Origin: Botryllus schlosseri
Lineage: Eukaryota
Length of the DNA: 64,000 bases
Direction: 5' to 3'
Assembly (NCBI GenBank): GCA_051294905.1
Contig: CM119372.1
Span: 23,686,001-23,750,000 of the forward strand
The notes below the pieces were generated by a model that saw only the letters and a program-made list of their open reading frames with translations, was not told the DNA's origin and made no database searches. Made by a program: the position numbers and the translations under genes. Shown piece after piece: positions 4,979 through 36,400 of the stretch (position 1 is the first letter of the stretch; each line of letters starts with the position of its first letter).

Positions 4979-6267
4979 TCTTCCTGTTCAACTCTACAAC
5001 AAACGATAGGCCTAGATTGTTCTTAAAGTGAATCAGTTACAGCAATTCAGCTATAGAATTCATATATACCTCATAACTGTATGTTTTGTTGAAGATGATG
5101 ATTTTCATATCACTTGAGACATTGTTAAACTGTTTTATATATTATACATATTGTACAAGCTGCTGTACTCATCTTTGGAATATTCTAGAACTTTGATAGT
5201 CAACCTCGAGTCTTCCAGTAAGAGTGATGATGACTCATTTTGAAAGTGTTCCGGTTTCTGGTGTATCTTGGAGTTGATCATATAATAACTCTTGTATATT
5301 GGTTTCAAAACTGACTCCACCATGTGCAGTGTCTTAGGCCGCTGGCTGTATGAACAGGTCACGGTAATACACTCTGCTATGTCTGTGAATTGAACTGTCA
5401 TTGCCTAGTAAAAGTACAGATTCAGAATTTCATCATGTTCGACTTACAGCAGATTGTGGTTTATCATATGTACAAGTAATTGAAGTAATGTTAACAAAAA
5501 AAAGATCCGAGACTCTTGTTGGTTGCAAGAAGTTGCACAGTGGTGAAACTTTTCTAGGTGGTGATGGTTTTCCTTCTGGTAGACAGATAAAGAGAGTTGT
5601 TTGATCACAACTAAAGTGATCAAAGTTGAACATACCCTCAGTGACTTGTCTTTTAGTTGGGCGTATTCCAGAAGGAAAACCATCAACACCTTGAAAAGTT
5701 TCTCCAATATGCAACTTCTTGCAAGCAACAACAGTCGTGGATCTTTTTTTGTTAACATTACTTCAATAACTTGTACATATGATAAACCACAATCTGCAGT
5801 AAGTCGAGCATGATGAAATTCTGAATCTGTACTTTTACTAGACAATGACAGTTCAATTCACAGACATAGCAGAGTGTATTACCGTGACCTGTTCATACAG
5901 CCAGCGGCCTGAACCACTGCACATGGTGGAGTCAGTTTTGAAACCAATATACAAGAGTTATTATATGATCAACTCCAAGATACACCAAAAACCGGAACAC
6001 TTTCAAAATGAGTTATCATCACTCTTACTGGAAGACTCGAGGTTGACTATCAAAGTTCTAGAATATTCCAAAGATGAGTACAGCAGCTTGTACAATATGT
6101 ATAATATATAAAACAGTTTAACAATGTCTCAAGTGACATGAAAATCATCATCTTCAACAAAACATACAGTTATGAGGTATATGTGAATTATATAGCTGAA
6201 TTGCTGTAACTGATTCACTTTTGAAACAATCCAGGCCTATCGTTTGTTGTAGTGTTGAACAGGAAGA
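4979..6267. repeat. 1.29-kb inverted repeat (hairpin) with ~600-bp arms
   Basis: 4979-5579 pairs with 5668-6267; mirrored near-identical 88-aa ORFs 5135-5401(-) and 5845-6111(+). Confidence 0.95.
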
Positions 6268-12300: not shown

Positions 12301-15300
12301 AACCTCTTTTCAGCCGTCGTTGTGTTACGTCGTAGAGTAGGATAGTCTACGGCTACTTGCCGCAACTAAACCGCCGTTGTGGTTTTCGTAAGATATAGAT
12401 CCTACGAAAAAATGGTTTACAATTATCGAAAATTTCTTCCCTTTTTTGACTGCGTCGAGAGAATGCAGATGTGAAGAAATGACTGATCGAAATTTCGCAA
12501 AGAAGCGATGACGTGTGACCTCGATACCACAGATGTAGCCAGATTTGAATGACACTTTTCGTGGAAATCGCTGCAATTCTAATACGGCGACTTTCTCAGG
12601 AAAATGGCTACTGCCATATGATTTGAACACGTTCAGTCATAATTTCTTCTGTTGTCCTATTTTCTAGCTGTTAAGAACTCAACCGGAATCAATTCCTAGA
12701 GTAATCGCCTATATATTTCAATCTCCTACTAATAAGTAGCTGTGACATATCGGAGGATATCGGGTGCAATGGAATAACCATAATAACCAAAAAAGCCACC
12801 CTACCGCATTTTCGTGGATGTATTCCAAGATACCGGCATCGTCACAGTTGAATAAAGAGCAATTGCTTTCATCGGCGCCATTTGGGCAATCCTAAATTTG
12901 ACATCACTCATTTCGACAAATATTACAGTCAGGAAATATCCGTGCAATACGTACCCCGCGTCGATCGCAATGCTTTTCCATTGGAATATTCGGCAAGGGA
13001 TGGTTTGTACAATAAAAACTAAACAAGCATACAAATCATTTGTAATAGTCATGATAGTTTATAGGTTTTTACCCAGGGGTCCGTCAACCCCTCGGGGGTA
13101 CGAAGCACCAAATTAGGGGGTACCAGACGCATTGTGGAATCATAAGCTATATAGAGCCCAAATTTATTTCGCAAACCAACAAAAAGTGGTATATTTTCTG
13201 GACAGATTTATTCAACTCGAAAATTTTCTACGCGCCTGGCGCGACTCCATGTAAATGAACTTGTTCATTTTAATATAGAGACCATCTCCCAAAATATTAA
13301 TAAGAATAATACAATTAAACAGACGCATAATTGAAGAAATGAGTTAAACCGTCTTTGCAATTACGATGGAACGGCATATTACTATAGTATCGCTTAAGGG
13401 ACTCGGTAGGGTATAGGCCCTGTAACCTGCTGGAGTGCTGGTGCATGGTTATGTTATTGGGCACCAGTATTTCGGCGCCGGATATAAATCCCGCCACATG
13501 ACACAACATGTAGTAATGCATTTTGGGTTGCATTTAAAACAAAAATTAATTACAAACAAACATGTTTAAAACATGGCCCTTGTACAAAACATGTTTTCAT
13601 TGTGTTTTTTTTATGTTCTTTTTAGCCATGCCGTCAAAATCATTGTGGATTGTTACGTTACGATCACTAAAGACGATGTAGCATACAGTGAGATAGGACA
13701 TAAGATGACAAAAATATGCTTTTAGCTAGATTTACGATACTAACATCTACACTCTAAATTCGAATGCGTGCAGAGGAACGCAAACTTACATGCCAAATCC
13801 GGTTTTTTTTTAACTACCACACAACGTGCTGGAGTCGATGTGTGCCTGGCTATCCTGTGTTTAGTAGTGGTATGTTCATGTTGACTGGTGCAGAGCTAGA
13901 AATTAATACCAGCCATCCATGAATTTTTACTCAGCTTAGGCTCAAAAAAGATTTTATTGCAGCGAAAGATCAATACAGAACATTCATTTGCAGACGAAAA
14001 TGTGTGAATTTCTAGCTTGCACAATTGAAAAACTTAAGCTTATCCAAATAGAAATAAGAACTACAGCTACAAAGTTATCATAAATTAGATTCTAATTAGA
14101 GCAAAGAAACGTTTCACTAATTGGTGTAGAATTAGAATTATAGCGACACAGTTGTTTTTGCAAATTAGAATCTAATTAGAGAAAAAAAGCATTTCACAAA
14201 TTGGTGTGGAAATAGAATTATAGCGACACAGTTGCAACCACAAATTACATTTGAATCAGAGCAAAGAAACATTTCACAAATTGGGATAGAGGTAGAATCA
14301 TAGCGATACAGTAAGATTCTAATTCAAGCAAAAAACATTTCAAAAATTGGAGTAGAATTACAATCCTAGCGACACGGTTGTTATCACAAATTAGATTCTA
14401 ATTAGAGCAAAGAAACATTTCACAAATTGGTATGTGATTAGAATTATAGCGACCAGTTGCAGCCACAAATTACATTTGAATCAAAGCAAAGAAGCATTTC
14501 AAAAATTGGAGTAGAATTACAATTATAGCAACACAGTTGTTTTCACAAATTAGATTCTAATTAGTGCAAAAAAATATTTCCCAAATTGGAGTAGAGTTAG
14601 AATCATAGCGACACAGTTCTTATCACTAATTAGATTCTAATTTCCGCAAAAATATTTCCCAAATTGGAGTAGAATTAGAATCATAGCGACACAGTTGTTA
14701 TCACAAATTAGATTCTAATTAAAGCAAAAAACATTTCAAAAATTGGAGTAGAATTACAATCCTAGCGACACGGTTGTTATCACAAATTAAATTCTAATTA
14801 GAGCAAAGAAACATTTCACAAATTGGTAGGTGATTAGAATTATAGCGACCAGTTGCAGCCACAAATTACATTTGAATCAAAGCAAAGAAGCATTTCAAAA
14901 ATTGGAGTAGAATTACAATTATAGCAACACAGTTGTTTTCACAAATTAGATTCTAATTAGTGCAAAAAAATATTTCCCAAATTGGAGTAGAGTTAGAATC
15001 ATAGCGACACAGTTCTTATCACAAATTAGATTCTAATTTCCGCAAAAATATTTCCCAAATTGGAGTAGAATTAGAATTATAGCGACACAGTTGTTATCAC
15101 AAATTAGATTCTAATTACAGCAAAAAACATTTCAAAAATTGGAGAAGAATTACAATCCTAGCGACACGGTTGTTATCACAAATTAGATTCTAATTAGAGC
15201 AAAGAAACATTTCACAAATTGGTATGTGATTAGAATTATAGCGACCAGTTGCAGCCACAAATTACATTTGAATCAAAGCAAAGAAGCATTTCAAAAATTG

Positions 15301-18300
15301 GGAGTAGAATTACAATTATAGCAACACAGTTGTTTTCACAAATTAGATTCTAATTAGTGCAAAAAAATATTTCCCAAATTGGAGTAGAATTAAAGTCATA
15401 GCGACACAGTTGTTAACATTTGAAAAATTGGAGTAGAATCAGAATAACTACTGCAGTATATTTTCTGAATTAGACTTAGAATCCAATTAGAGGTAGTTTT
15501 TATTTCAAATTAGAGTAGAATTAGAAATATAGCTATACGTTAGTGGTTTTCTAAATTAGATTCGATTGAGAGCAAAGAAACATTTCACAAATTAGAGTAG
15601 CATCAGAATTTATAGCTACACAGCTTTTTCCAAACTAGAGTAGAATTAGATTTGTAGCTCTTTTTTATTTCGAAATTAGAGTGGGATCAGAATTATAGCA
15701 ACACTTTTTTTCAAATTATAGAGTAGAAGTAGAACTATAGCTACAATGTTTTTCCAAATTAGAGTACAATTAGAATTATAGGTTCAGTTGTTTTCACAAA
15801 TTAGATTCGAATGAGAGAGACGAAGCACTTCACGAATTAAAGTAGAATTATAATTATAGCTAGTTTTTTTTTCAAAATTAGAGTATAATCAGAATTTTAG
15901 CTACACATTTTATTTTCACTCTAATTAGACAACTAGAGTAGTACTAGAATTGTATAGTTGTCCAAGTCAGCAAACGAAATAAAAATCATTACTGAGATTT
16001 CTAGAATCTGCTCATAAAACAGAGAAGCTTGTTGGATTGAAACCCAAATTTTTGTATCCAATCAGGACATACTGTAAAATTGACAGTATCTGGAAAACTT
16101 TTGGATATGGTCACAAACATAATAACACGCGAGAAGATCCAGCACCATCTCAAATGGTTTCGCTTTATTGTGAGACGATCCCTTTATGCGGATGCCATTC
16201 GCCACGATCCATGACTGCAGGTCACCATTTTCATGGTACGCTAGTACGAGATGTCGAGGACTCAGCTTTGTGGCCGTTAATTGGACTGAATGGGCCTGGA
16301 ATTGAAAGAAATATGTTAAGTAAAATTATATTGCCAATAATCCATGTGTGAATCGAAAGCACAAGATTTAGATTATGTAGAATTGCCTTTATGGGACTTC
16401 TGCATAATGCATATTGAATAAAAATAGAGCTGAATAGGTCAATATAGGTTTTTGCCAATATGGTTTAACAAGCTTAACTCATGGAAACAAGTGATAGCAA
16501 ATTCTGTCGTCACGACATGCTGTCTAGTCGCTGACATGTATGGGTTTTTCCACATAATCATAAGTTTACTAACCTTTAATGATCCATTCAGATTTGATCA
16601 GTATACCATCATACAGGTTCCTTTTGGAACGGCACAAGCATTATGTTCACATTCACTGATTCTATGCACTATATCCATGGTAGCCATCCTCATGGACTCG
16701 AAGTCAGGAAAACCAAAAATTACATTAGCAGCAGAAATGATTTTCCGTGGTGTGGGACGAAAACGAATTTACACCAGCTCATTCTAACTTAGATTTATAG
16801 CCTTATCAAAAATAATCATGTAATTGAAAAGCATTTAATAATCATTTATTTTTGGAGGCCTTCTTTCAGTTTGAGTGTTTATTGCACCGTCATAACGTAA
16901 ACAGCGTCAATCAAAACATAGGCCTACAATATTTTCAGCACCCAAAAACAAAATGAGGCACACGTCTGAGCTCAACAGACCCCGAATTAGAACACATGTT
17001 TGTGTCGCAACTTGGAAATTAACAGACCCCGAATTAGAACCAACTCAACATGCGCGCATGTTAAGCCATAAAATTTTCAAACAACTAGCACTAGCAGTAC
17101 TTTTGTGACGGTCTGTTAAGTTCAAACTTGTGCCAGATTGTGGCATGCAAAACGTTCAAGGTGTTATGGAAAACGACGAACAATGTTTGCCGAAAAATCA
17201 GGACAAGAGTAGAAATCAGTACAAATCTGACAAATCAGGACGTTATGGTACATCTAGGTTCATTGTTCACACAGTTCCAGGTTAAGCAAGCAGCAAATCC
17301 TACAACTCACCTGATAAGCGTTATCGCCCTCAAATCCTGTTGTGATTCTCTCTTCAGTTACTGCATTTCGTAACTCCCTCCCTCAGGAGCATAACCGCAG
17401 CGGCTTGTTTTCCCTACAAATAAATATCAAGTAGAAGATTTGGTTGAAGGACATTCCACTTATTGCATTCCGGTTGATATGAAGGCAAGAGTTCTGACAC
17501 AACAATATTTAATAAATTCATTCTAGAATAGTTGAATAATACTAACCTCTTCATCTGTCTCTAGCTCTGCTCCAAATATTTCGTCAGGAGTAGTAAGTAT
17601 TTCGCTTCGACACTCCTCGGAACGAACACTTGAAACCCCGCTCTGATCTATTACAAAGGCAAAGTGTTACTATAAAAGCAGCTAGTGAGCTAAGCATGCA
17701 CATTGCACACACTTCTATGTGTTATATAGAGGGAACTTGATATGAATATAATAAGATTTATTTCGCTGGATAATATAAACAATAATTATTATAATAGGTT
17801 CATGAATAAAATATCATGTTTTCAACTAATGAAAATGTCGGGCATCCCTAAAAGACGGAGAAGCGGAGGCAGCGGAGACAGCGGAGGCAGCGGAGAACGG
17901 ACCCTAAAACGCGGAAACAGCGGAGACAGCGGAGAGAGCCAAAAATGCCGATTCCTAAAAGACGGAGTTAGCGGAGGAAGCGGAGAGCGGAGCTTTCGGT
18001 CATTAACCTTTATAGACACGCGCGACATAGCGGACGGATACTGAAAGCGGAGTTCGGGACCCAGCGAAATGGACATAGCGGACGGTTATATAATATAGAA
18101 AGCGCAGATCAGGGCGTATCGGAAGATGTTTCGAAGCAGTGGAGAATAACGGAGAAGTCAGCCATGCAAGTTAAAGACCAATTGGGCGACTGATTGCCCG
18201 TAGATGAGATGACATAACGGACGGATACTGAAAGCGGAGTTCGGGGCGTATCGGAAGATGTTTCGAAGCAGTGGAGAATAACGGAGAAGTCAGCCATGCT

Positions 18301-21300
18301 ATTTCGAGGCCAATTTGGCGACAGATTGCCCGTCGATGAGATGACATAGCGGACGGATACTGAAAGCGGAGTTCGGGGCCCCGCGAAATAGACATAGCGG
18401 ACGGTTATATATTATAGAAAGCGGAGATCAGGGCGTATCGAAAGATGTTTCGAAGCAGTGGAGAATAACGGAGAAGTCAGCCATGCAAGTTAAAGGCCAA
18501 TTTGGCGACTGATTACCCATCGATGAGATGACATAGCGGGCGGTTATATAATACAAGGAAAGCGGAGTTCGGGGCGTATCAGAAGATGTTTCGAAGCAGT
18601 GGAGAATAACGGAGAAGTCAGCCATGCGAGTTCAAGGCCAATTTGGCGACTGATTGACCGTCGATGAGATGACATAACGGACGGATACTGAAAGCGGAGT
18701 TCGGGGCGTATCGGAAGATGTTTCGAAACAGTGGAGAATAACGGAGAAGTCAGCCATGCTATTTCAAGGCCAATTTGGCGACTGATTGCCCGTCGATGAG
18801 ATGACATAGCGGACGGATACTGAAAGCGGAGTTCGGGGCCCCGCGAAATAGTCATAGCGGACGGTTATATAATATAGAAAGCGGAGATCAGGGCGTATCG
18901 GAAGATGTTTCGAAACAGTGGAGAATAACGGAGAAGCAGTGGCGGCTCGTCCTATAGGGCAACTGGGGCATTGCCCCACCTAAAATTCTGTTCAATAACA
19001 GTTCTTTACCATTTATAGACGCACAGCAATCTATATATACCGAAATCACAGCAAAAATCGTATTCTTCTTGTCCTTTCGCTTGTAAAAGCCCATATATAT
19101 AGCGAAGTCTCTGCGAAAATCGAATTCTCTTCGTGTTTTCGCTTTGCAAATGCCTAGCCGGGGCATGCCCCGGTAGCGCTCATAACAAGCTTTCACTGTC
19201 TATTCTCTCAAAGCTGCGCACAATAAAGAAACAGTGATTTACTCTCTCCTATTCATAAAATGACCGAGCAACCGGGGCAACATAGCCTACTCGCCCTTAA
19301 GGTGTGATGTAACAATCGTATCTACATCTGAACTCGGTTACCGTCATATGCGTTTAGTCGACCTTTGCTGGTATAGGTCGATTTTGATGGTGTTTCACAC
19401 CATGATAATTCTTGAAACTTGGTATGTCATGTCGTGATGGTGGTATTTAACATTGTCCCAAGTTTCAGGGTTTCTACTTAAAGTTTAGGGTAGTAATTCC
19501 GTTTCCGAAGTTGAGTGTGTGCTGATTCGTCATGTATCGCAAACAGATTTTACTCAAAAGCCGGTATTGGTATCCATTGATTTTGACGATGTTCCATACC
19601 GAGATCGGTCATGACATTTGGTACGGTAAGTCTTAATGTTAGTATTCAACGCGGTACCAAGTTTCAAGTTTGTCACTGTACTGTGTTAGTGGTAATTTCG
19701 TTTCCTAAATCGAGTGAGAGCTGACTCGTCATTTATCGCAAACATATTTTACGCAAAGCCGGTATTGGTCTCCATTGATTTTAACGATGCTCCTTACCTA
19801 GATCCGTCATGAGCTTTTGCATGGTATGTCTTGATTTTAGTATCGAACGCTGTGCCGAGTCTCACGGTTGGCACTCAATGATTAGGGCAGCAATTTCGTT
19901 ATCAAGGTCGAGATGTTAAAGATGTGCGCTGATCTGACACTTAGCCTACCTAACGCATTGCGGATTTCACGCAAAAGTCGGCGTATCTGTGTTAACGCTA
20001 ACTGTGTTCCATACTGAGATAAGTGATGAGATGATGATATCATGAAACAGTTTACTAGCATCCTCGGTTTGCATTCAAATATTTATTTTTATTTTATATT
20101 CTCCGATGTCAATTTTGACCGTGAAATTGTGGCCTTCAGGCCATTTGCTTACAATTACAACCCCTGTCAAGCGCGATAGCTGTTTCGTTTTCGATGGCGG
20201 CTAACAGCTGATCGCTTGATCAATGATCAGCCTATTCCTCAGTAAATTTTACGCAAAATTCGGTGTTGGTCTGTTTGTATTAATTTTGACAGTGTACCAT
20301 ACCGAAAACGGTCATGAGGCTACTTCTCGTTGATTTAATGTAACAGTGTACCAAGTTTTCGGCTTTCATCCACGTATTTATTCGGTAATATATTTTCCAA
20401 AGGCGATTTTGCAGCAGACATATAGACCGTAAGCCGTATGTGTCGTGTGACAGTCTCCAGCACCAAGGCCAAAACATCTCCTATGCTGTATCGGGACCGA
20501 ATTTCCGAGGCTGCTATCCGTAGTTCTTCAGAATTATGTTTTGGATTCAATATGACATTGTCCAATCTATGAGATAACAATTGCGTATGTGTCCGAACTC
20601 GTTGACCTTTCCAGCTAGGCTTACGCAATCTCTCGAGTTATAGTCATTTCCATTTCTGCAGATAATTAGTCAAGTCAGGTATAGTGCGAACATGAGCCGT
20701 GTGAAATCTTTGTTCCGTACGCCGTTTACGCAGTTACCACACTTCAAGTCACAGCTCACCGGCAGACCTCTCGCGGCACATACGTTAAATCACTGTTGTC
20801 GGGAAGTTCGTGTTACCGTAGTTCGTACCACTAAGTTACTTGTTTACGTTGGAAAACTCCATTGTGACGTCATCTTGATAAAAAGTCGCTTGCAGCCCTT
20901 GCCCCACCACCCGATATTGTCACGAGCCGCCACTGCGGAGAAGTCAGCCATGCAAGTTAAAGGCCAATTGGGCGACTGATTGCCCGTCGATGAGATGACA
21001 TAACGGACGGATACTGAAAGCGGAGTTCGGGGCGTATCGAAAGATGTTTCGAAGCAGTGGAGAATAACGGAGAATTCAGCCATGCGAGTTCAAGGCCAAT
21101 TTGGCGACTGATTGACCGTCGATGAGATGACATAACGGACGGATACTGAAAGCGGAGTTCGGGGCGTATCGAAAGATGTTTCGAAGCAGTGGAGAATAAC
21201 GGAGAATTCAGCCATGCGAGTTCAAGGCCAATTTGGCGACTGATTGACCGTCGATGAGATGACATAACGGACGGATACTGAAAGCGGAGTTCGGGGCGTA

Positions 21301-24300
21301 TCGGAAGATGTTTCGAAACAGTGGAGAATAACGGAGAAGTCAGCCATGCTATTTCAAGGCCAATTTGGCGACTGATTGCCCGTCGATGAGATGACATAGC
21401 GGACGGATACTGAAAGTGGAGTTCGGGGCCCCGCGAAATAGACATAGCGGACGGTTATATAATATAGAAAGCGGAGATCAGGGCGTATCGGAAGATGTTT
21501 CGAAGCAGTGGAGAATAACGGAGAAGTCAGCCATGCGAATTTCAGGCCAATTTGGTGATTGCTTGCCCATCGATGAGATGACATAGCGGGCGGTTATATA
21601 ATACAAGGAAAGCGGAGTTCGGGGCGTATCAGAAGATGTTTCGAAGCAGTGGAGAATAACGGAGAAGTCAGCCATGCGAATTTCAGGCCAATTTGGTGAT
21701 TGCTTGCCCATCGATGAGATGACATAGCGGACGCGTTTCGTATGACAATTTAACTGATGATAGTTGTGGAATATTATACTGAACTACTTTCTACTTTACA
21801 AAAACCGAATTGTAAATGTAATTAGTTCATCCAGAATACTGTTCAGGTAGATGTTGAAGTAATTGCGAAACATTACCACTTCAGTAAGTACCGGAAATAG
21901 CCCAAATCTACTTGATTACCTCGAATAAGTAGAGGTATTCAACATATATAATATCTGAACAACGTGATGTGATATAGCAAAAATAACGTCAGATTCGTAT
22001 TCAGCGCCCCCAAATTAGGTATAATTGACCCGAAGAAGTCCTGGCGCAAAAATCCTGTAGATCAGCGTTATTGGTGCTGCGGCGTGCGACGCCATCAAAC
22101 CAGGAAATTGGCCCGTGAGCACATTCTAGTTTGAGACATCTGCACTAGTGACTATAGTGCGAACTCCGTAACTACTTGCTATGAACCCAATATCGGGGCA
22201 TTTTGCCTGGCCTTAACAATCCACCTTTGCTCGACTCGATCTTCTCCTTATTTGCTAACACATGTCACTTCATTAACGAAATATCTTTTACAAATTATAT
22301 ACATATGTTACCAAAATGAAACGATGAATGAAACGAAGAAAATATACAGTCATGATAAAAAGTTAAATAAAAGTTCACGGCTGAATTTTAGCAGCTAAGC
22401 AGTTTTTGCGGTAGCAAATGAAGTATGTCATCTCATCAGCCTTTTCATCGACTAGGCAGGACTTGTGGAACCATCTTCGACATTTCACACACATTATCTG
22501 CTGATCTTGGTCTTTACTACCTTTACATAAGCTGCTGTCGCAATTATCCCATTTCGATTTATTCATGACACCAATGGCAGATGAGGAATCGGCTAGCTCT
22601 GCATATGTAATATCACTTTCTGATATTGCATTCCAATCACCCAAAATACAACCGGATTCTGATTGCGTTTCGTCAGTCGGTCGACGGCCGGTTGGCAGTT
22701 GGTTCTCAGTTGACCGTTCTCGAATCCCTGCCAAGTAATCTACCCAGACTCGGCACTTTCCCGACGGAAAATCACGCGCTAAAGGTAAATTATTTGTCAC
22801 GCAATAAGCATTTGCTATCACATGTATGCCGCAGTCAAATGTGTTCTCCTGTTGTTTAACGTCCCTGCACAGAAAAAACTGCCACTCGTCAATTGTGCAT
22901 CTCACATTCGCAACCCTGAAGCAAGCACTGACAATTTTGAATGAGTTGCGAAAAATACCCTCATATCTCGTCCGATTAGGAGATATAAAAGAGTCCATCA
23001 CCAGTATAGTTTTGGTACTCAAGTTAACTACTGTCAGTATCCAGTGATTTGGAACATGCACTAGAAAAATGAAGAAGTCTTTGTTCGCTGCTTGGTGCTT
23101 ACGCGCAAATCGGCACAGCGACGGCACATTGTGATCTTGTTCACTCCATTGATACCTGTACGAGGTGAAAAACAAAACCAAAGGTTTTTCGGTACAAAAT
23201 GCTTCTATCGCTCGCTCTATTGTTTCATCATCTAGCCATTGCTCAGGTTTCAAGCATTGGCGTATCACATGCTGCGGATCTTTATTTTCCTTTGACGACG
23301 AAAGCCAAGGGTAATCATTGAGGGCGGGCAGCTTCACAGAGTCGGTCGTCAAGTCCAATGGCGCTGTTTCTTCATTGATTTCAGACATCTGCTCGTCGGA
23401 TATCATTGATAGATCAGAATGCAATAGCGGTTGTTTGGGTTGCTGTTTTCTTGGTGTTGAATGGTGAGCTGGTGTACTATTTACGGTATAGTCAAAATCT
23501 ACCCGGCGAGGCCTTTTCCGACCGGACTTCCTGGTCCTACCCTTGCGATTTTTCAGGAGCTGACTCAAATTGCAGGGGACCGCTTTCTGTGTGCTGTTGT
23601 CTTTTAATGACATCGCTACAGCTAGAATATGATAGCATATTGTTGTGCTTGGGCAAGTACATGAGGAAGGCTTTGGGAAATACCTGACGCAATGAACTTG
23701 ACGTTGAGTCATTGAAGCAACAGTGAACACACCATTGGTCGACGAGAACCCAACCATATTATTTATCCCGCACCACCTCGCCATAGCGCGCTGGGAGAAT
23801 CTTTGATTCAACTTATTGTTTGACCTGAAGAATTTTGTCACATTTTGGTCATTGTTGATTTCACTTATGATATCGTCAAGCGTCAACATTTTAGGAAATT
23901 TGATATGTTCGAGTTTTTTTCTCATGTAACTAAATTCCGTTTTCAGTTGATATTCCCCATGTCCGCATTCCGCACGGCGAAAATCATGTAAGTAGTTCGT
24001 CTGCAGATTATGCATCCATAATATGATGGCATCCAATGTCATTTCTTTACGCCCGCTCGCAGCCTTCAAAACGTTGTTCATTGACTCGCTAATATTGTTA
24101 GTGGGTGGGCTCTCACTAAAAGCGGAAAAATATTTCGTTCTGAATCTGCAGGTATTTCTGGAAATGTCACCCTTCAAATGTTTGTCAAAATATTCTCTGA
24201 ATTTGCCTGTCCATCCATTTGCCAGCGTACGATATTTATCGTTGAATTGATCTTCTCCATCCGACAAAACCAACTTGCGTATATCACCCAATAGAATGCT

Positions 24301-27300
24301 CACTTCGTGTGTTTTAAAAGAGTGTTCGCGAAGCCATCTTTTTGCATCATTGAGGATATGGTTCAGACAATAAAACTTTGGCAAGTCTGGAAAGTAATCA
24401 TGGAGTGGTTTAGTTATGCCTTTTTCCCGGTCAGTCACAAACGGAATGTTTGAGCATTTATCCATACCGAGGCAATGCAATATGTCGCGGAACATCTGTT
24501 CATGGTTTGTCATGAACTTTTTCTCATGCACCATAAATGCAACTGGGAATATTGGGTCCCCCTTCATTAGCACATTGCGGCACACTAAAATGGAAACGTA
24601 AAAGTCCCCTAGGGAGAAAGTTGTATCGTAGGATAGCACTTGGGGTAGTTCCGTATTCTTCATTGAGATTTTCAATATATTTCTAGTCTCATCAAGCATA
24701 TCGCTGTGTGCCATACGGATAGTTATGTCGGGAATTATTTCGATCTTTCTGACAAAGTCACCGGTGTGAACTGACATTTCTACAGCATTATAAACCGTGT
24801 CCTTGGAAATTCGAAGCGACTGCCGATTTGCGTATTTCATATTTTCGCATTGTTTCACATCCCGCGGTCTGTCTGTGGGCATTCTAGATTGATCCGATTG
24901 CCTCATTCCTTTGGCTTGTAAATCGACATACGTTTGTTTGGGTGTATTTTTGTCGTCCTTTTTGATTTCGTCCAGGCACGCCCGCGAGGTGTGTACGAAC
25001 ACTGAATCTTTTTTCTTTATTGCATTGCCGTGTGAACTGTCTCGATGCAGAGTAGTGTCACCCATATAGTGTACAAGATATATGGTGCCGGACTCAGTAT
25101 TTCTTTCTTCTTCTAAAATCAGTGAATACACGTGTCGCTTAAACCCGGGCAACGTTTCTCTAAGCTTGCCGTTTGGATCCTTCAATTCATAATATCGCTT
25201 GCATACCTCTCCTTTAACGTCGCGACATTTCCCCTTGTGTATGAATCTATATTGGTCGCACTGGAAGTCGGATCGTCCTGATTGACAGGGAGAGCGATAC
25301 AAATAACCTTCGCCACCTTTGGGTAGTACTGCCGGTTTATCCCAAACATTTTCAGGATTTTCCAAAATTTCTCTTGCTCTTGCGTAACTCAGAGATCTAT
25401 TTCCAAGCTGAAGCATACTTTGAACTTTACATCAATACTGCATAGGCCTATCTATAGGACTAGAAAAACGGCCATCATTGCATTTTTAATGAAATATATT
25501 GCAAGTAGGCTATAGATTCAATACACTGGCTATGTGATAATGTTTGAAATACATGGCACTAAAGTCGCGCCGCACCACTACGCAAGTCCACGACGCAAGT
25601 CAGTGAAATCGAGGAACGAAGATCGAGTTTAATATGCATGCAAAAAAGCGTTGTTTAGCCGACGCACGCGTAGAAATGCTTAACGTCGTAAGTAACTGCT
25701 CTAGTGATGGTGTGTACTGTGTACCCCGGAACGGTTCAGGTTCTGTGTGAACGTCATGTCTGTGTGACGTCATGTCTAACATTTCAGTTACGTGTTATAT
25801 TAATTTTTGAGTTTCATCCACACTTTTTTGCAAAAGAAATTTCATTCGCACAAACCAGGGGCGGGCAACTTCTCCAGTCGGCGGGCCGGATACAGGAAAA
25901 TTAGGTACTTGGCGGGCCGTATTGCTGAATCGATACATTAGTCCCCCAGTTATCCACATATAGAAGATGTAAATCGCATTTATTGAATGTATTTTAACGA
26001 CAGCAATGTCACGTCAAAGCCATTTCTCGCCGATATTGACGAAGACAGTGTGGATTTGAGAACAGCATTGTCATACAGGCGCCGCCATGTTTGCTTCTCT
26101 CTGATCAATCAACACACGGTGCAATCACTAATTAAGATTGCAAGGCGTTCGATAAGCCCGGTACCCCAAATTTACCGAGATATCAATTCTTTAGGGCTGA
26201 GCGGGTAACGAGATAGGGTCGTTGTTCAACTGTATGGCCTATTTTATCTCGATATTGAATTCATGCAGACCGCGGCTTCTACGACATTTGAAAAGTGGCC
26301 CAGCCGTGTTACAAGTCGGCAGCTACTGAATCAAAAATAAGAAATATCGGCCTGGTGTAAATTACCATTGTAGCTGGTGACGCACCGTGTTGCTTCATTC
26401 TGACAATGTTGTCTATATCACAATTTTTCAGCTTGCGTTTCTTAATGTAAGAACCATGCAATGTCCAAGCAGTCTTGCTTCAGTTAGGATATTGCGGTAC
26501 GTTGACCATAAAACCATGTCACTATTTGTTTCATTTGACCGTTTATGATTCACAATGAGCAGACGATGGGACGTTTACAACGGTAGGATTATAAAGTAGG
26601 CTACAAGCTGTAAATTATCAAATGATAAGTTAACAGACAGCGCAAAATCTACGATACAAACGAAATGTAGAGGTCAAAAAATGTTTGATTTTGTATACAA
26701 TTTTGACAAATTTTGACCTAACGCTACAATTTTGACCTAATTTTGACTTTTTTTGACATGTCCAAAAAAAATCGCCCTAATAATAACATACAGCCACTAA
26801 TATTTGACGTAGTAAGCAAGTAGTGGGGAATCTCGGGAGACTGTAGCCGCGGGCCACATTATTATATAAGACAGAAAACTGTCCGCGGGCCGGACAAAAT
26901 CCCTTCACGGGCCGGATCCGGCCCGCGGGCCGTATGTTGCCCACCCCTGGCACAAACGAACCGAAAGTTGTCATACAAAAAATAATATGAAGATACTGAA
27001 CAACATTTTGTTCAGATGTGCAGCAAATTGGCTATCTATGTAGCTTAAGCTATAAAGTTCCTCACGCCCCGACGCCGAAGGGGTTGGCCTCGAAATGAAT
27101 GAGTCGAATAGAGGCATTATGAACTCGCTCGTTGCATGCGCATTGTGCATGCACACTAGGGTTGTTCAGAATTGACCGGCTTTCAAAAAGGAATATAGGC
27201 ATCATGAACTCGCTCGTTGCATGCGCATTGTGCATGCACACTAGGGTTGTTCAGAATTGACCGGCTTTCAAAAAGTAATGGTTTTCAGTACGTCTCCCAT

Positions 27301-30300
27301 GCCTTAAAAACGTTTTCTAGCCACTTTTTCTGTAATTCATTCCTTGCATCTGTGGACATGTGCAATGTGCATGTTGAGCTGGAAACCTAACTGTAGATAT
27401 TTAGCCTAGTTCAGGTCACCAATTTCATATTGTACAATGCCTCATCCGAATTTTCATTCACACCACACCTTCGCCATTCTCACAGCAATTTTTTTCATTC
27501 GCATGAGTACGAACCGTCACACAGGTTGAAAAGCGCTGATGTACACAATGCTATAATAATCCCATGAAATCAATATCATCCGTCATTTTGTCACCAATTT
27601 CGACGAGGACTTGCACGGGAATATAAGCTTACGCCTCAACGGTCTATGCCCGACCGTAAAATGTATTCGGCCTGTGACTATCAATACATTGACATTGAGC
27701 AAATTGTAATATACGAAAAAGATTCACTTCACAGTGCAGAGCCTACCAAGGTTCGTTTGTGAACGCGAACCTCTAAATTCCCGAGTATCACACACAAAAC
27801 GCGAACGTGAACCTCACGTCCGCACCATCCCTAGGGCCTCCGCCTATAGGCTAATTATCAGCAAAAATAGAGAATAGAGTACGAAACCGCAGATAATTGG
27901 ACCCGTCCAGACAACCATCTTAGATCGCCACTGCCCGTGTAAATTTGTAATTTTTTGCTTGTATTCACATCAATAACACATTGTCCAATTTTGAACTCGA
28001 TTAAAAAACATCGGAATACGGGTCGCGGCACATCCATATTATGTTTCCATTTTTGCTACCTAATATTTATGAAATTTTCATTTTAATCAGTGGAGGCTAG
28101 CCTACTTTCAAGACGACACTGTCCCATTTACAACTCATATCTTGAATATACTAATTCCCCAATAAATTGTATCAATGCAAGAAACGTTGAAGAGATCAGA
28201 GTCGGTCTACATAGAAATAACTCAATATTAAATTTAGAGATACTGTACTGCTACGACCCTCATATCTCGCATCTGCCTGGAGTTGTGCTTGTCCTCTCGA
28301 GTATATGAAAGGGCTGTCATATTCGACGTTTAGCTGTAATTGCAGACTATAGCTCAACTCGTGGCGTTTCAAGTTTTACCCTGCCTGATTTCGCGAGCTT
28401 GGGACCGGCACTGGCTAGAAGATCATTCTGCAGTTTCGAGTCTTTACTCAATAGATTTGACAGCTGATGACTGCTCGCAGACCTCTGCGGTTTTATTAAT
28501 TGCTCGTGATCTGGCGATCCGCGGGTTTAGATGTGATGTTTGTTGCCCAGTAGCCTATTTCCTTCAATTACCGCTATCTGTAATCGCTACACACACGAAA
28601 TATCAACCTAGCTCAAACTATTCATGTATTCAACTATAGCTTGCCGCACAAACAATTCATTTCAAATCGGTAAAGACTAAAGATATATATTATCTCCCAA
28701 GCTCAATAACAATTTAAGGACTATTTGACATACTGTAATAGCCAGAGCAAATATTTCCAAATAATGAAACATCATACTTAATCCTGAAGTTTTCAGGTAT
28801 AAGCACATGTTATTTATTGGATTACTGATAATGGGTATAGTGGTACCCGCACCGCGTTGCTGATATTTCAGCCATATACGCGGGGCCGGACGGTTTTATC
28901 AGGGGTATTGCGATGATCTAACATTGCGTACATTCATAAAGCGCCAGGTCATCCACCGCATTGTGTATTGCATTTGTCTGCTGAGGCGCCGTATCGCCTA
29001 CCCGCATCGCCGCGGATCCGGTTCTTAAGGATTTGAAGATCGCTATATATTGTACACAACAATTTGTGTGTGTTTTTTCAGTAACATACATCATACAGTC
29101 TTTTCTACCTATCCTGATGCTACGTTTTATACCTAAATGATAAAACAGTGCGTTGTATGAGCAATTAACCGCTTTTGGAAGACTTTCTTATGGTCAAAAA
29201 TGTCCGCCTATTTGGGAATAGCCTACACAGCCAACGATGAAGCCATACGGAGATAGAGCATGATTTACTTCTTATGTAACATTGCTATATATTCAGAGGT
29301 GATCAAAGTAGTCAAGAAAACTACTCAAGTAGAAGTAGCGACGAAAAAATTTACTCAAGTACGAGTAGAAGTATATTTTCCATAAGAAACCTAAAACTAC
29401 TTGAAGCAGCAGTAGAATTGACTGACTTTAAATCTACTCAAGTAAGTAAGTAGTTGTGAAAACGATCGTAATTCGTTCGCATGGATTGTCAAAACGTGGA
29501 AATTGAGCTACGCGAAAGGTGTCGAGCTTGATTCATATTGATGCATACCAGGAACTATCCAATTTTCGACAGCATAAGCATTCTTCCGCATCATGAAATA
29601 AAAATGCTGGTATTGATTTTAGAAAATACCATGGTATCGCACCCTCCTCCATATTATAAGGCCCGCAGTTTAGTCAAAGCGCAATACGGAGAATTGTATA
29701 GGATACGGTGTAAACACCTTCCGCGATTAGTAAACGCTAATAAAAATATGGTGCATCGTAAAAATGCCATAGCCATATAGTGTAGCTTTATTTATGCCGC
29801 ATCCACTGCACGCGAAACGCGATGAAAATTCTGGGCTTTACTCAACTTTTATGAAAATTAGATGTGGATACTCCGTGAAAACAGCCCCGAAATTCCTCAG
29901 GCTATCTTTCTGATTGGAGGATAAGGCTACTTCTACTTGACAAACTGAAAATAGCAAAAAGTAAGTAGATCACAAAATATTACGAAGTAGAAGTAGTGAA
30001 AATCAGATCTCCTTGAGTAAGTACATTATATAACCGTCCGCTATGTCTATTTCGCGGGGCCCCGAACTCCGCTTTCAGTATCCGTCCGCTATGTCATCTC
30101 ATCGACGGGCAATCAGTCGCCAAATTGGCCTTGAACTCGCATGGCTGACTTCTCCGTTATTCTCCACTGCTTCGAAACATCTTCCGATACGCCCCGAACT
30201 CCGCTTTCAGTATCCGTCCGTTATGTCATCTCATCGACGGGCAATCAGTCGCCCAATTGGCCTTTAACTTGCATGGCTGACTTCTCCGTTATTCTCCACT

Positions 30301-33300
30301 GCTTCGAAACATCTTCTGATACGCCCTGATCTTCGCTTTCTATATTATATAACCGTCCGCTATGTCTATTTCGCGGGGCCCCGAACTCCGCTTTCAGTAT
30401 CCGTCCGCTATGTCATCTCATCGACGGGCAATCAGTCGCCAAATTGGCCTTGAAATAGCATGGCTGACTTCTCCGTTATTCTCCACTGCTTCGAAACATC
30501 TTCCGATACGCCCCGAACTCCGCTTTCAGTATCCGTCCGTTATGTCATCTCATCGACGGGCAATCAGTCGCCCAATTGGCCTTTAACTTGCATGGCTGAC
30601 TTCTCCGTTATTCTCCACTGCTTCGAAACATCTTCTGATACGCCCCGAACTCCGCTTTCCTTGTATTATATAACCGCCCGCTATGTCATCTCATCGATGG
30701 GCAATCAGTCGCCAAATTGGCCTTGAACTCGCATTGCTGACTTCTCCGTTATTCTCCACTGCTTCGAAACATCTTCCGATACGCCCTGATCTCCGCTTTC
30801 TATATTATATTACCGTCCGCTATGTCTATTTCGCGGGGCCCCGAACTCCGCTTTCAGTATCCGTCCGTTATGTCATCTCATCGACGGGCAACCAGTCGCC
30901 AAATTGGCCTTGAACTCGCATGGCTGACTTCTCCGTTATTCTCCACTGCTTCGAAACATCTTCTGATACGCCCCGAACTCCGCTTTCCTTGTATTATATA
31001 ACCGCCCGCTATGTGCTCATCGATGGGCAATCAGTCGCCAAATTGGCCTTTAACTTGCATGGCTGACTTCTCCGTTATTCTCTACTGCTTCGAAACATCT
31101 TTCGATACGCCATGATCTCCGCTTTCTATATTATATAACCGTCCGCTATGTCTATTTCGCGGGGCCCCGAACTCCGCTTTCAGTATCCGTCCGCTATGTC
31201 ATCTCATCGACGGGCAATCAGTCGCCAAATTGGCCTTGAAATAGCATGGCTGACTTCTCCGTTATTCTCCACTGCTTCGAAACATCTTCCGATACGCCCC
31301 GAACTCCGCTTTCAGTATCCGTCCGTTATGTCATCTCATCGACGGGCAATCAGTCGCCCAATTGGCCTTTAACTTGCATGGCTGACTTCTCCGTTATTCT
31401 CCACTGCTTCGAAACATCTTCTGATACGCCCCGAACTCCGCTTTCCTTGTATTATATAACCGCCCGCTATGTCATCTCATCGATGGGCAATCAGTCGCCA
31501 AATTGGCCTTTAACTTGCATGGCTGACTTCTCCGTTATTCTCCACTGCTTCGAAACATCTTCCGATACGCCCTGATCTTCGCTTTCTATATTATATAACC
31601 GTCCGCTATGTCTATTTCGCGGGGCCCCGAACTCCGCTTTCAGTATCCGTCCGCTATGTCATCTCATCGACGGGCAATCAGTCGCCAAATTGGCCTTGAA
31701 CTCGCATGGCTGACTTCTCCGTTATTCTCCACTGCTTCGAAACATCTTCTGATACGCCCCGAACTCCGCTTTCCTTGTATTATATAACCGCCCGCTATGT
31801 GCTCATCGATGGGCAATCAGTCGCCAAATTGGCCTTTAACTTGCATGGCTGACTTCTCCGTTATTCTCCACTGCTTCGAAACATCTTCCGATACGCCCTG
31901 ATCTTCGCTTTCTATATTATATAACCGTCCGCTATGTCTATTTCGCGGGGCCCCGAACTCCGCTTTCAGTATCCGTCCGCTATGTCATCTCATCGACGGG
32001 CAATCAGTCGCCAAATTGGCCTTGAAATAGCATGGCTGACTTCTCCGTTATTCTCCACTGCTTCGAAACATCTTCCGATACGCCCCGAACTCCGCTTTCA
32101 GTATCCGTCCGTTATGTCATCTCATCGACTGGCAATCAGTCGCCCAATTGGCCTTTAACTTGCATGGCTGACTTCTCCGTTATTCTCCACTGCTTCGAAA
32201 CATCTTCTGATACGCCCCGAACTCCGCTTTCCTTGTATTATATAACCGCCCGCTATGTCATCTCATCGATGGGCAATCAGTCGCCAAATTGGCCTTGAAC
32301 TCGCATTGCTGACTTCTCCGTTATTCTCCACTGCTTCGAAACATCTTCCGATACGCCCTGATCTCCGCTTTCTATATTATATTACCGTCTGCTATGTCTA
32401 TTTCGCGGGGCCCCGAACTCCGCTTTCAGTATCCGTCCGTTATGTCATCTCATCGACGGGCAACCAGTCGCCAAATTGGCCTTGAACTCGCATGGCTGAC
32501 TTCTCCGTTATTCTCCACTGCTTCGAAACATCTTCTGATACGCCCCGAACTCCGCTTTCCTTGTATTATATAACCGCCCGTTATGTGCTCATCGATGGGC
32601 AATCAGTCGCCAAATTGGCCTTTAACTTGCATGGCTGACTTCTCCGTTATTCTCCACTGCTTTGAAACATCTTCCGATACGCCCTGATCTGCGCTTTCTA
32701 TATTATATAACCGTCCGCTATGTCCATTTCGCTGGGTCCCGAACTCCGCTTTCAGTATCCGTCCGCTATGTCGCGCGTGTCTATAAAGGTTAATGACCGA
32801 AAGCTCCGCCCTCCGCTTCCTCCGCTAACTCCGTCTTTTAGGAATCGGCATTTTTGGCTCTCTCCGCTGTCTCCGCTGTTTCCGCGTTTTAGGGTCCGTT
32901 CTCCGCTGCCTCCGCTGTCTCCGCTGCCTCCGCTTCTCCGTCTTTTAGGGATGCCCAAAATGTCGTGTAATTGGAAAAACAAGTGAGTCAACTGCAAAGC
33001 AAGATCTATATAACTTGGTCATGAATTCTAGTTGTAAACCCATATTGCATCAACGTAGAGGATTAACTGACATTATGAAACTCCGTTTCGATGCTACTGC
33101 AAGTTGATCTAAAAGGCAATCCACCAATATTTCTCACACTGCTGCTTGCTGAAGAACCCTCTTGACAACATACCGGTAATCATAACATATCGCATGTTGA
33201 TATTCTTGAACGAATTACCTTCAATTATTAAAGCAATGTGTTCTCTTGTAATGGCGTACGCAATCAACATCTTCTTTATTCCTTCCGCTATGATGAGATT

Positions 33301-33415
33301 AGCGACACGTTCATCCACATCCATAAAGTCACTGTACTGCGACCTGTCGCTCCATTTAAATTTGACCCTTTGACCGTGACTGAGTTTCCGCCGTTACCGA
33401 GAGATGTGAAGCGTG

Positions 33416-33456
<41 letters not shown>

Positions 33457-36400
33457 TAGCAATAGAGAAATTATAGATAACTAACCTACGTAGGTTTATC
33501 TATAGAGAAACGTAGGTTAGTTATCTATAGAGAAATACAGAGATGTTTATTCAGTCAACAGTCAAAAGCAGAATGCACTGATAATAGCCAGGTAACACTA
33601 ACGATTACTAAACAACGTACTTCAAAATTACATGGTGATGACAATGATTGATTGATTGATTTCTTCATTGCTATACTGCTGATATATCAATGATCAATAA
33701 TGAGGAAATGCAATATAATGGAAATGATCAATTTCTTCTGCCAGTTTGGTAGGTAAATAAAATGAGAAGAGAAACGATCACAAAATCTAGTAAATGCAAG
33801 AAAGCGACACACTAAAATAATGGAGCGACATTGATGAAACAGCAGTCCACTTCATGGCTCCTGAGCAATGTGCCCTTTTAGGTACGCATGTGTGCAATTG
33901 ATTTGAGCTGACGCAGTCTCTGCTCACATAAATTATCAGTTGCGCACAAAAAATCCGAAGAGATGACCTTTTTTTTAGTGGTTACGCACTGTTGTCCAAG
34001 GGACCGCGCAGTGAATAGGTGAGCGCTTGCTGCAGACTCGTCAAAATTAGAGGTAACATTGCTTCTGAGCTATATGTAAACGGGGCTAAAAGCACGCATT
34101 ACTTACGCGAGAGTCGTTATTACCGTTCAACATCTATTATAGAAAGGCTGCATCATTTGAGAATCTATATCTTGCAGCTTAATTCCTCCCCTGCAAATAA
34201 CCCAGCGGGAGCAAACAGACCCCAGGGTCATTGGGTTTACCGATGACGTCATGATCGGCACACGAGTGTACCGTACGTTACCCTGGATGATCTGGTCATT
34301 TACCAGTGACATTACGATTACATTTCAGCAGCGTTTCCATCGTCGACCTCACAATCCCTCTCAATCTTACTGATCTCACAACTCGTGCGGCGACTTACCG
34401 GACTATTAAAATGTATACGTAAACTCTTTCATAGTGATCAAAGCCGGCGACAGATGATAAGATGAGAGCAGAAGCACATATTTCGTAACTTTATCTGATG
34501 AAGTGTGGACTTGCACATATTATGACACCACTTCGGCGAAAGATTTGGGTCGACTTTATGTGTTTGTCCCATATTGCATCTTTGAATGCACAATTTTGTG
34601 TCTAAATCGATGCTTTCGATTTAGAGTGTACATGAATACTTTTGTGTCACAATTCTGCGTTTCTCTCAATTATTACATGTTGTAATTCATCATTGAATTC
34701 TTTCATTGTGCCTCCCTGAGAATGCTCTGCGGCCACCTTGGGGAGTCGAGGGCCAAGTTTGTGAAGTGCAATTCGTCTGAAGGCTCATACTATACATGTT
34801 TTTTCGAAATGATTTACGCAATTTTGACATAATTACACAATTTAAAAAAATCATTTTTAAATCGCATATTTTAAAACACCGTTTAAAACATGTTTTAAAA
34901 CACCTCTTGTTTTAAATGCAGCCACAAATGTATTAGATGTGTATTGTGTTAGATTTTGGATTTTATGAATCAGAGAAAATTTGGGGTTGCCGAAGCCTTG
35001 CCGGTAGGGGAAGTGTTCTCCGTGTTAGTTAACAACCACTGCCCTAATATGTTCCTAAATCAATTTGTTGGATCTGTTTTTGTCAGATCTGGCGTTAACT
35101 TCCAGTCCACAAAGACACATTAATGAAAGCAACCAAGGCACCAGAGAGTCTCCAACACTTGGAACGAATTTCTAACACTGGGCCCAAATAACATTTGCTT
35201 TTATATCAGGCTCCAGGCATACCTAACTCGGGAATCTGCGCGGAAAGATAGGCTCATGATTGCGATCTAGTCCGCTTTCGCGCTAAGCATGCATAATTTA
35301 ATGTCAGTTATACATCACATCAAAGTCCATTTGTTGTGTTTTAACCACACCTATTCAATTTCTCTTTGCAACAATGCTGTGGATTGATGGCGATAACAAC
35401 ATGGCATGTCCACCAACGTGCGTATAGCTTTTAATCACTTGTTTTGGACGGTACTGCACAGGATCCAGATTTACATCTTTCGACAGTGGAAAACAGTATT
35501 GAAGCTATAATGGTCATAGATGAATCAACTCTTGGTTGCATATAGCTTAGAATTTCAGTACTTGAAAAAAATCATCTAGACTCGAATCATTCGGGGCTAA
35601 GGTTTTTTTTGCGAAAGCAAACGTCTGAATTATCAAGGCTTCTATACCGAACACAAACACGAACCGAACGTTCGAACCACCCCTACTTAGCATTCACTTC
35701 GGAAGGGGAGAGGATGAATTGCTATTGACTAGAGTTCGTGAGTATCAAAGCATAAAGTCAGAATATTTGTCCTTTGCGGGAATCAGAGTGATACAAAGAT
35801 GACAATACACATCATTGCCTGGTTATTTATCACACAGCGGAAAAGGAATAGGTTAAGTCAGTAATTCCCAACCTTACTGTGCCCCCTTGTTCCCTTATCC
35901 CATTTCATAGCTTTATTCAATTCTCATTATGTGACGTAAACGATAGAATATTGGAATTGATGGAGCATTAATACAATAATTTACATCATATAGGCCTACT
36001 ATACAGGTCAAATGAGAAAATATCATTTGCTCACATAAAGTGATATGATTTACCTTCCGTAACTTCACAACATTTCATGACTTGAAATTGACCTAAATAT
36101 TTGTATTCGAGTGGCGAGTTATTCCGCATTTCTTATACGTCGTGGGTATGGCTGCAGTCAAGTCAAGTCATTCAAAAATTGTGACTCGCGTCACGTCACC
36201 CAACACTGACTGTTGATTATATTGCGTGCTGTTACCAACATTCGCATTTTCGCCTCAATGTGAATATAAACATGTAAACAAAGACACTTCTTACTTATTT
36301 CTACATCCTAGCTCGTCTCCGAAGTTTTCACAAAATTGTACTCCGTCACACAATGAATTTAACCAAACGAGGCTGATGGATGATCCGTTAATAGGAACGC

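Follow-up and report, generated by a model that had tools for sequence, protein, structure and literature searches.

The closest described systems to the element reported here are Mutator-like elements (MULEs) of animals, for which Foldback ends together with Phantom-like transposases have already been published (PMC3169594). A Phantom element may have none of the accessory domains, a FLYWCH or a SWIM domain, with ends of 18-613 bp (PMC6446971); Phantom Cs of Ciona savignyi has 4,006 bp, a target-site duplication (TSD) of 9 bp and a terminal inverted repeat (TIR) of 613 bp, the nematode Tm1 being also a Phantom element (PMC3169594, PMC6446971), and composite Drosophila elements lying between foldbacks are mentioned in PMC6431247. 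For Muta1 of Aedes aegypti, it was shown that binding of the transposase needs the palindromic end motif GGGTCTACCC, that complexes and excision both increase with the number of subterminal repeats, and that reinsertion gives TSDs of 8 or 9 bp (PMC5499845, PMC5225508). In this work, we analyse a stretch of 64,000 bp of Botryllus schlosseri DNA (assembly GCA_051294905.1, contig CM119372.1, positions 23,686,001 to 23,750,000 of the forward strand; called the window below, with position 1 being its first letter), in which we describe a large element with long, repetitive inverted arms.

We hold it probable that the element represents a single insertion of a Foldback-type MULE, having an unbroken transposase, three nested elements and a right arm that is likely truncated, and that the CGGA repeats of the arms are the predicted binding sites of a CG-1-like domain of the transposase, which would load the enzyme on the ends. 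Its kind is known and the copy is damaged; notable are the size of the arms, the terminal grammar shared with relatives and the CG-1-like domain.

Ends and modular arms

The outer termini are GGGCATCCC, starting at position 17840, and the reverse complement of this sequence, which ends at position 32956, giving a span of 15,117 bp. On both the left and the right the element is flanked by AAAATGTC, an 8-bp TSD; an 8-mer would match at such a set position by chance with a probability of about 3-4e-5. Assigning the first G of the left end to the target gives the 9-bp TSD AAAATGTCG, and the same ambiguity between 8 and 9 bp is seen in the relative locus L025. In the ungapped comparison of the two ends, mismatches occur at position 147 and then at position 294, i.e., one in the first 293 bp, and the match extends over 368 bp, beyond which the module order diverges. 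Since the strict motif GG[GA]-N5-[CT]TAAAA-NN-CGGA occurs in the window solely at the two termini, the end register of the element is fixed. The initial annotation of this DNA had described a 15,117-bp element with matching termini, one mismatch between terminal segments of ~185 bp and a TSD, and all of this is borne out, with one mismatch found in 184 bp.

The ends begin with GGG, as in Mutator elements and MULEs with their long TIRs starting with G, and the TSD of 8 or 9 bp falls in the Mutator/MULE range of 8-11 bp. Moreover, the arms are inverted arrays of tandem modules that vary in number (15 versus 25), as is characteristic of Foldback elements. By every feature testable here the element is a MULE and Foldback-type, as had been claimed before, with the transposase, the modular arms and the MULE-sized TSD in agreement.

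The left arm has 1,899 bp when nested element 1 is skipped (the terminal segment of 184 bp, 15 modules and 25 bp) and the right arm has 2,932 bp (184 bp, 25 modules and a stub of 23 bp), in accordance with the earlier estimate of unequal arms of ~1.9 and ~2.9 kb. The modules are of 48, 132 and 136-142 bp, so that the arrays of ~132-bp modules described initially are real as modular arms while their sizes are more varied. In the right arm there are three higher-order units with the 786-bp spacing noticed previously, each composed of 326+460 bp; because they differ from each other by 11-15 of 786 bases (1.4-1.9%), they are not identical assembly copies. The CGGA motifs, which had been said to recur throughout, number 157 in the arms, all directed inward with none on the other strand (being module copies, they are not independent), and RCGGA occurs 142 times, again always inward, at 29 per kb versus ~1 per kb in the remaining window. 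The terminal segment has 13 RCGGA with a spacing of mostly 9 bp.

The order of modules is not the same in the two arms. In the left arm, the adjacent modules L10 and L11 are identical, and the innermost two are diverged, with 8-9 of 94 bases off the majority. The edges of tandem arrays are usually diverged, and this is likely the natural edge of the array. All 17 long modules of the right arm differ by just 1-4 bases, and this arm begins abruptly 23 bp into a module, abutting the cut-off nested element 3 (junction 30024/30025). Because the arm stops in mid-module at a cut-off element and, unlike the left one, has no diverged edge modules, we infer its truncation: a deletion likely took its inner edge, in which case the arm once had a greater length and some of the asymmetry is due to damage. 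The word intact, used of the element at first, holds for the unbroken reading frame and fails in view of this likely truncation and the three nested elements.

The ends of relatives were compared in 33 loci that have enough flank, out of 77 retrieved. Paired GG-N6-TAAAA ends surround the related transposase in 6 of the 33, and an exact TSD is present in 4 of these 6, the length being 9 bp in three of them, among which two probably represent a single insertion, and 8 or 9 bp in the fourth; the relative L051 has a 9-bp TSD. The strict motif is present in 7 of the 77 loci. The ends of the relatives, ~60-120 bp long, read GGG-N5-NTAAAA and continue with short repeats, among them CGGAC, CGGGA and CAGAC, and one relative family begins with GGGTCTGACTAAAACACGGA, versus GGGCATCCCTAAAAGACGGA in the element. 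The grammar of GGG-N5-TAAAA plus CGG repeats, shared by the short-ended relatives and the element, suggests that the arms may have grown from a short subterminal repeat into an expanded array of predicted binding sites. The motif GGG-N5-ATAAAA, located 157 bp upstream of the open reading frame (ORF) in the closest relatives, L001-L003, was considered as an end and rejected, since the similarity continues past it, and a search of metagenome contigs for the exact 38-bp end gave 0 matches. As separate observations, one end of the short-ended relative L074:18543-20894 is directly followed on the inside by a 72-bp array, and the relative L051 (8427-9467 and 15645-16376) sits within a 19-bp satellite.

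The transposase and its N-terminal domain

The longest frame of the window (22375-25431, minus strand) has 1,018 codons, or 1,013 residues from the first Met at 25416, with no other frame exceeding 174 residues, and when 84 short frames from the window were scanned against Pfam, neither a further ORF within the element nor a clear host gene emerged. Residues are numbered as in P0001, i.e., by the frame, where the first Met is Met6; it aligns with the Met of a Ciona intestinalis protein, the closest named relative (42% identity). D269, D334, E449 and C355xxH358, as well as W407 and the ligands of SWIM, are unchanged across all 12 aligned proteins, and the DDE triad, CxxH and SWIM Cys/His are also invariant in an alignment of 7 proteins (7/7). 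The claim of one intact transposase ORF between the arms is hence well founded, the frame having no stop and its catalytic residues being kept. In the tree of 31 core regions, drawn by midpoint without an outgroup, the Ciona protein clusters with the transposase, as do two metagenome loci (97/94), and a Ptychodera protein comes next. Among 13 candidate stretches in viral contigs, none has a related transposase.

The initial annotation missed the Ulp1, PHD-like and CG-1-like domains. Peptidase_C48 is matched at 59.4 bits in Pfam (cut-off 20.7), H796, D813, Q861 and C867 are invariant in 7/7 aligned proteins, and the profile of seven such protease domains has SENP1 and Ulp1 as its best matches among solved structures. 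From these sequence comparisons, the domain is assigned to the Ulp1/SENP (C48) proteases, with a His-Asp-Cys triad, an oxyanion Gln and a predicted activity.

The N-terminus is, as judged from alignments and a structure model, a predicted CG-1-like DNA-binding domain (CAMTA-type, WRKY/GCM-fold) instead of FLYWCH, for which no Pfam match up to E 10 was present in the N-terminal 145 residues. The relatives P0018 (42% identical) and P0033 score 26.9 and 30.5 bits for CG-1 (cut-off 23.5), and the element's domain aligns with their CG-1-passing regions at E 2e-31 and 1e-27, respectively. With a profile of six such N-terminal domains, 889 proteins are matched at E 0.001 or better; 52 among the best 150 of the 889 were scanned for CG-1, of which 41 match at E 0.01 or better and 7 have no match, the other 4 being ankyrin giants for which the scan covered their top five families. 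In 11 of the 52, CG-1 occurs together with MULE, with C48 also present in 3 of the 11 and PHD in 2. Moreover, Pfam CG-1 is matched in 27 of 39 proteins of a second set of aligned domain relatives, and a profile built without the element's domain scores that domain at 130 bits.

The structure model of the domain (pLDDT 72) matches the solved folds of SSR4 (Z 8.4, root-mean-square deviation 3.7, 111 aligned), WOPR (6.8), NAC (6.7) and GCM (6.2), and more weakly those of WRKY and AFT2. A Foldseek search with the model gave nothing at E 0.001 or better, with NAC, WRKY, SSR4 and WOPR in the top rows; the profile gave nothing useful against the sequences of solved structures; and the Atlas matches, to unnamed or WRKY/GCM-clan clusters (0.79-0.91), are a lead only. 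A profile search among longer proteins gave 5 matches, none of them CAMTA, which is a weak test. Profile searches having retrieved no true CAMTA, the support for homology to CAMTA comes from the Pfam model and from the fold, and the Pfam CG-1 model may already include transposase sequences.

In PMC9252788, CG-1 is placed with the SSR4, WOPR, NAC and GCM families in the WRKY/GCM1 clan, and PMC1702500 ties that clan to MULE transposases, with no mention of CG-1 in the portion of its text available. The Mutator feature given in the latter paper, an N-terminal WRKY/GCM1-type DNA-binding domain with SWIM after the core, is found here in the fold matches and the SWIM residues. CG-1 is not mentioned in PMC10027918, and CAMTA is absent from the available passage of the Codebook preprint on transposase-derived domains. 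Among mainly freely accessible papers, a literature search gave none in which CG-1 is described as part of a MULE transposase.

Apart from transposases, 2-6 tandem CG-1-like domains are present in P0034 (a Capitella teleta protein), P0035, P0046, P0051 and P0102, which have no transposase match, one having BTB and C2H2 and one FLYWCH; this set consists of candidate domesticated transcription factors. Among P0057, P0074, P0080, P0083, P0063 and P0101, the domain is N-terminal in ankyrin-repeat proteins of 3,400-4,100 residues, and several CG-1-like copies lie in proteins with a retroviral-type integrase domain.

Based on these features, the following mechanism can be proposed. The CG-1-like domain would bind the CGGA repeats of both arms and load the transposase on the ends; that the arm repeats are transposase-binding sites is likely by analogy, as it fits the Muta1 experiments (PMC5499845) and the conservation of the motif in relatives. 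As in Muta1, the DDE core would then cut at the GGG end motif and join the element to new DNA with a stagger of 8-9 bp, and extra subterminal repeats would increase binding and excision. As the relatives suggest, the arms would arise by tandem amplification of the short subterminal repeat of the 60-120-bp ends, and unequal exchange would generate the 326/460/786-bp higher-order units. The putative role of the remaining domains is that the Ulp1 protease would strip SUMO-type marks and the PHD finger would read histones near the element, with silencing thereby countered. A wider proposal, which we regard as tentative and rather doubtful, is that an unnamed, widespread clade of animal MULEs binds DNA by CG-1, that the CAMTAs of animals and plants got their DNA-binding domain from such a transposase, that the arms are a runaway array of CG-1 sites, and that an anti-silencing function is built into the transposase through its Ulp1-PHD tail.

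Table 1. Features of the element and its flanks, in window coordinates
Feature	Position	Strand	Remarks
Left TSD AAAATGTC	17832..17839	+	with first G taken as target: 9 bp, ending at 17840
Left terminal segment, 184 bp	17840..18023	+	GGG-N5-CTAAAA-N2-CGGA end motif, then 13 RCGGA
Left modular arm	18024..21745	+	15 modules (48, 132, 139, 141 bp) + 25 bp; split by nested element 1
Nested element 1, hAT-like non-coding, 1,999 bp	18937..20935	.	14-bp TIR CAGTGGCGGCTCGT, 8-bp TSD CGGAGAAG
Region 3' of ORF	21746..22374	-	21742-22025 overlaps a higher-copy host repeat
Transposase ORF, single exon, stop-free	22375..25416	-	CG-1-like DNA-binding domain, MULE DDE core, SWIM, basic GRKRPR patch, Ulp1/C48, PHD-like finger
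PHD-like finger	22414..22530	-	20.2 bits vs Pfam cut-off 24
Ulp1/SENP-type cysteine protease domain	22783..23157	-	H796, D813, Q861, C867
CG-1-like (WRKY/GCM-fold) predicted DNA-binding domain	25012..25416	-	residues 6-140
Upstream region, likely promoter/5' untranslated region	25417..25855	-	inferred from position only
Nested element 2, hAT-like non-coding, 1,094 bp	25856..26949	.	ends CAGGGGC/TGGGCAAC, 8-bp TSD GCACAAAC
Non-coding interior	26958..29293	.	high-copy repeat pieces ~27020-27860, low-copy 27792-29293
Nested element 3, hAT-like, high-copy family	29294..30024	.	one end short by ~60 bp
Right modular arm	30025..32772	-	25 modules + 23-bp stub; inner end likely cut by deletion
Right terminal segment, 184 bp	32773..32956	-	1 difference vs left
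Right TSD AAAATGTC	32957..32964	+	followed by G

Copies, nested elements and alternative origins

Twenty sequencing runs contain part of the element interior, and four of them (X1, X5, X7 and X24) were compared over 21700-30070, with contig depth serving as a rough guide and not as a copy number. In X1, the depth is ~172 over the 3' ORF, 78-103 in mid-ORF, 50 over the 5' ORF and 60 over 27792-28475, as compared with tens of thousands over the nested families, and X5 has the same slope from 3' to 5'; the family appears to be low-copy, with 3' pieces outnumbering 5' pieces. A 2-base variant at 21724, at the inner end of the left arm, has a depth equal to that of the 3' ORF contigs in both X1 (175 versus 172) and X5 (846 versus 847), and because of this equality the arm is linked to other ORF copies. 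The ORF differs from that of X1 at 13 listed positions (up to 2 more may be unlisted), or ~0.4%, and pieces diverged by 2-6% (10/461 and 12/200 bases) are also present in X5. Among the 13 differences, 7 are synonymous and 6 are not (7/13 versus 21% expected, p 0.009-0.037 against random change), with synonymous to nonsynonymous changes standing at 6:1 within the core versus 1:5 for the C-terminal part (Fisher p 0.03, from small numbers). X7, which has another organism label and an ORF depth of ~5, was considered as a case of horizontal transfer and rejected, as the high-copy repeats of the host are present in it too. No listed run containing the interior is recorded as RNA; several guessed to be RNA have 0.26-0.39 of the words, which is a lead only. 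The description of the family as young and possibly autonomous is thus weakened: near-identical ends and the open ORF speak for it, while the few copies in other samples, ~0.4% to 6% different, and the near absence of ORF reads from one RNA library speak against it.

Several observations weigh against the reading of the element as a Foldback-type MULE loaded through a CG-1-like domain on its arms. The evidence rests on one full-length copy. Paired end motifs are absent from 27 of the 33 loci; the relatives with defined ends are from one assembly, at ~30% protein identity and in another part of the tree; and the closest long-flank relative, L001 (49%), has no CGG-rich arm within 10 kb upstream. 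The N-terminal domain itself has no direct match to Pfam CG-1 (PF03859), and Pfam MULE is matched at 24.0 versus a cut-off of 27.6 (E 5e-5), with SWIM and PHD also under the curated cut-offs; relatives of the transposase pass the MULE cut-off. In addition, the ORF depth is 0-1 in the RNA run X24 (6% read, 1,934 million letters).

The nested elements, which are non-coding and which we take to be hAT-like from their 8-bp TSDs and CAG ends, are three, where the initial annotation had rightly found the one in the left arm and missed those at 25856-26949 and 29294-30024. Nested element 2 sits ~440 bp upstream of the transposase ATG and belongs to a high-copy host family. A copy at 53190-55540, which retains both ends with a TSD match of 7/8, shares three blocks of 71-83% identity with nested element 3. 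No match in Pfam or Rfam was found for the non-coding interior, and an Rfam search of 17000-34000 gave 0 matches.

This patchwork could instead point to a composite or cargo element, modelled on the Drosophila TE elements between FB copies or on Pack-MULEs, whose outer ends moved with captured host DNA (~25.9-30.0 kb) and whose right arm came from a neighbouring copy, which we consider unlikely. The 4.6 kb of non-coding sequence between the ATG and the right arm is indeed rich in high-copy host repeats, the junction 30024/30025 is abrupt, and the X1 depth over 28635-29319 is about twice that over 27792-28475. However, the junction into nested element 3 is spanned by a contig from another individual (28924-29319), the depth of the low-copy interior is close to that of the 5' ORF (60 versus 50 in X1), as expected of the element's own interior, and the Pfam scan of the window frames gave no gene fragment; nested insertion plus one deletion accounts for the same pattern.

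Still less probable, in our estimate, is a fixed immobile insertion whose ORF is kept by host selection, i.e., an early domestication, with the differences between samples being alleles of one locus. This would agree with the 5' ORF having the lowest depth seen, with an interior common to the samples and with the synonymous excess in the core. By contrast, the 3' ORF depth in X1 of ~3.5 times the 5' depth and the diverged pieces in X5 (10/461, 12/200) indicate several copies, and the ends and TSD are pristine, with almost no RNA in the single library X24. That the arm lengths or the whole layout are an assembly artefact, with tandem repeats collapsed or expanded, is hardly credible even if the arms are known from this assembly alone and L10 and L11 are identical, because the higher-order units differ by 1.4-1.9%, the module order differs between the arms, and exact TSDs are present for the element and for two nested elements.

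Some other repeats of the window are recorded here. Diverged tandem repeats of ~198 bp lie inside nested element 1 (19358-19875). The copy at 53190-55540 carries a nested element of ~970 bp (53207-54178, with a 31-bp TIR), of which an 85% identical copy is at 10987-11963, and a relative of nested element 2 at 720-1680 is interrupted by a palindromic element of ~590 bp (857-1443). At 4979-6267, inverted arms of 524 bp, 97% complementary with 241 bp between them, are likely a young miniature inverted-repeat transposable element or a small foldback. A satellite array of 79-80 bp at 14074-15906 has higher-order periods of 317/396 bp and a 41/83-bp tail, with a short related array at 40137-40315. 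One weak match in the Pfam scan of short frames is von Willebrand A at 58720-59046 (-, E 3e-4), a possible host exon.

Comparison with known systems

Taken as a single insertion, the element is one more Foldback MULE. Set beside its short-ended relatives, the kilobase-armed element would illustrate clearly how, as has been proposed, simple ends develop into Foldback arms with satellite-like higher-order repeats. With a CG-1-like domain in a MULE transposase, CAMTA would join the Mutator-tied transcription-factor domains FLYWCH, FAR1/FHY3 and AFT, and, if it is true that the CG-1 domain binds the arms, the presence of the arms beside an unbroken enzyme makes the link between CG-1 and the transposase directly testable. 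The CAMTA transcription factors (CG-1, PF03859) are alike in the sequence motif and the predicted fold of the N-terminal domain, whereas the element is without their TIG, ankyrin or IQ parts.

As described in PMC3169594, Drosophila Foldback (FB/FB-NOF), Arabidopsis FARE and Galileo have long, unequal, internally repetitive inverted arms like those of the element; P, Tc1 and MULE elements have each arrived at the Foldback structural class on their own, and the likeness noted here is one of structure. Rehavkus, compared by description only (PMC6446971), is likewise a large, animal, MULE-like element (5-18.5 kb) with a 9-bp TSD, a PHD finger and a minisatellite near one end. It differs in its TIRs of 26-412 bp, while in the element the PHD-like finger, below the cut-off, is C-terminal behind Ulp1, and the N-terminus is CG-1-like. 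The repeat arrays of the element form part of both arms; the minisatellite of Rehavkus lies before the 3' TIR.

Phantom is an animal MULE with, in some cases, Foldback-like composite ends and with TSDs of 8-10 bp (PMC3169594, PMC6446971). The comparison with Phantom drawn initially is apt as to structure; the N-terminal FLYWCH finger of Phantom (PMC3169594), whose ends reach up to 613 bp, is undetected in the element, which has the CG-1-like domain instead. Muta1, a type 2 foldback MULE of Phantom group 20 (PMC5225508, PMC5499845), shares the TSD of 8 or 9 bp, the imperfect palindromic terminal motif GGG...CCC, tandem subterminal repeats, the DDE with conserved His and Trp, and unequal repeat numbers in its derivatives. 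It has, however, ends of 145 bp, a length of 3.2 kb and a protein of 504 residues, as against arms of 1.9 and at least 2.9 kb and a protein of 1,013 residues with CG-1-like DNA-binding, Ulp1 and PHD domains in the element.

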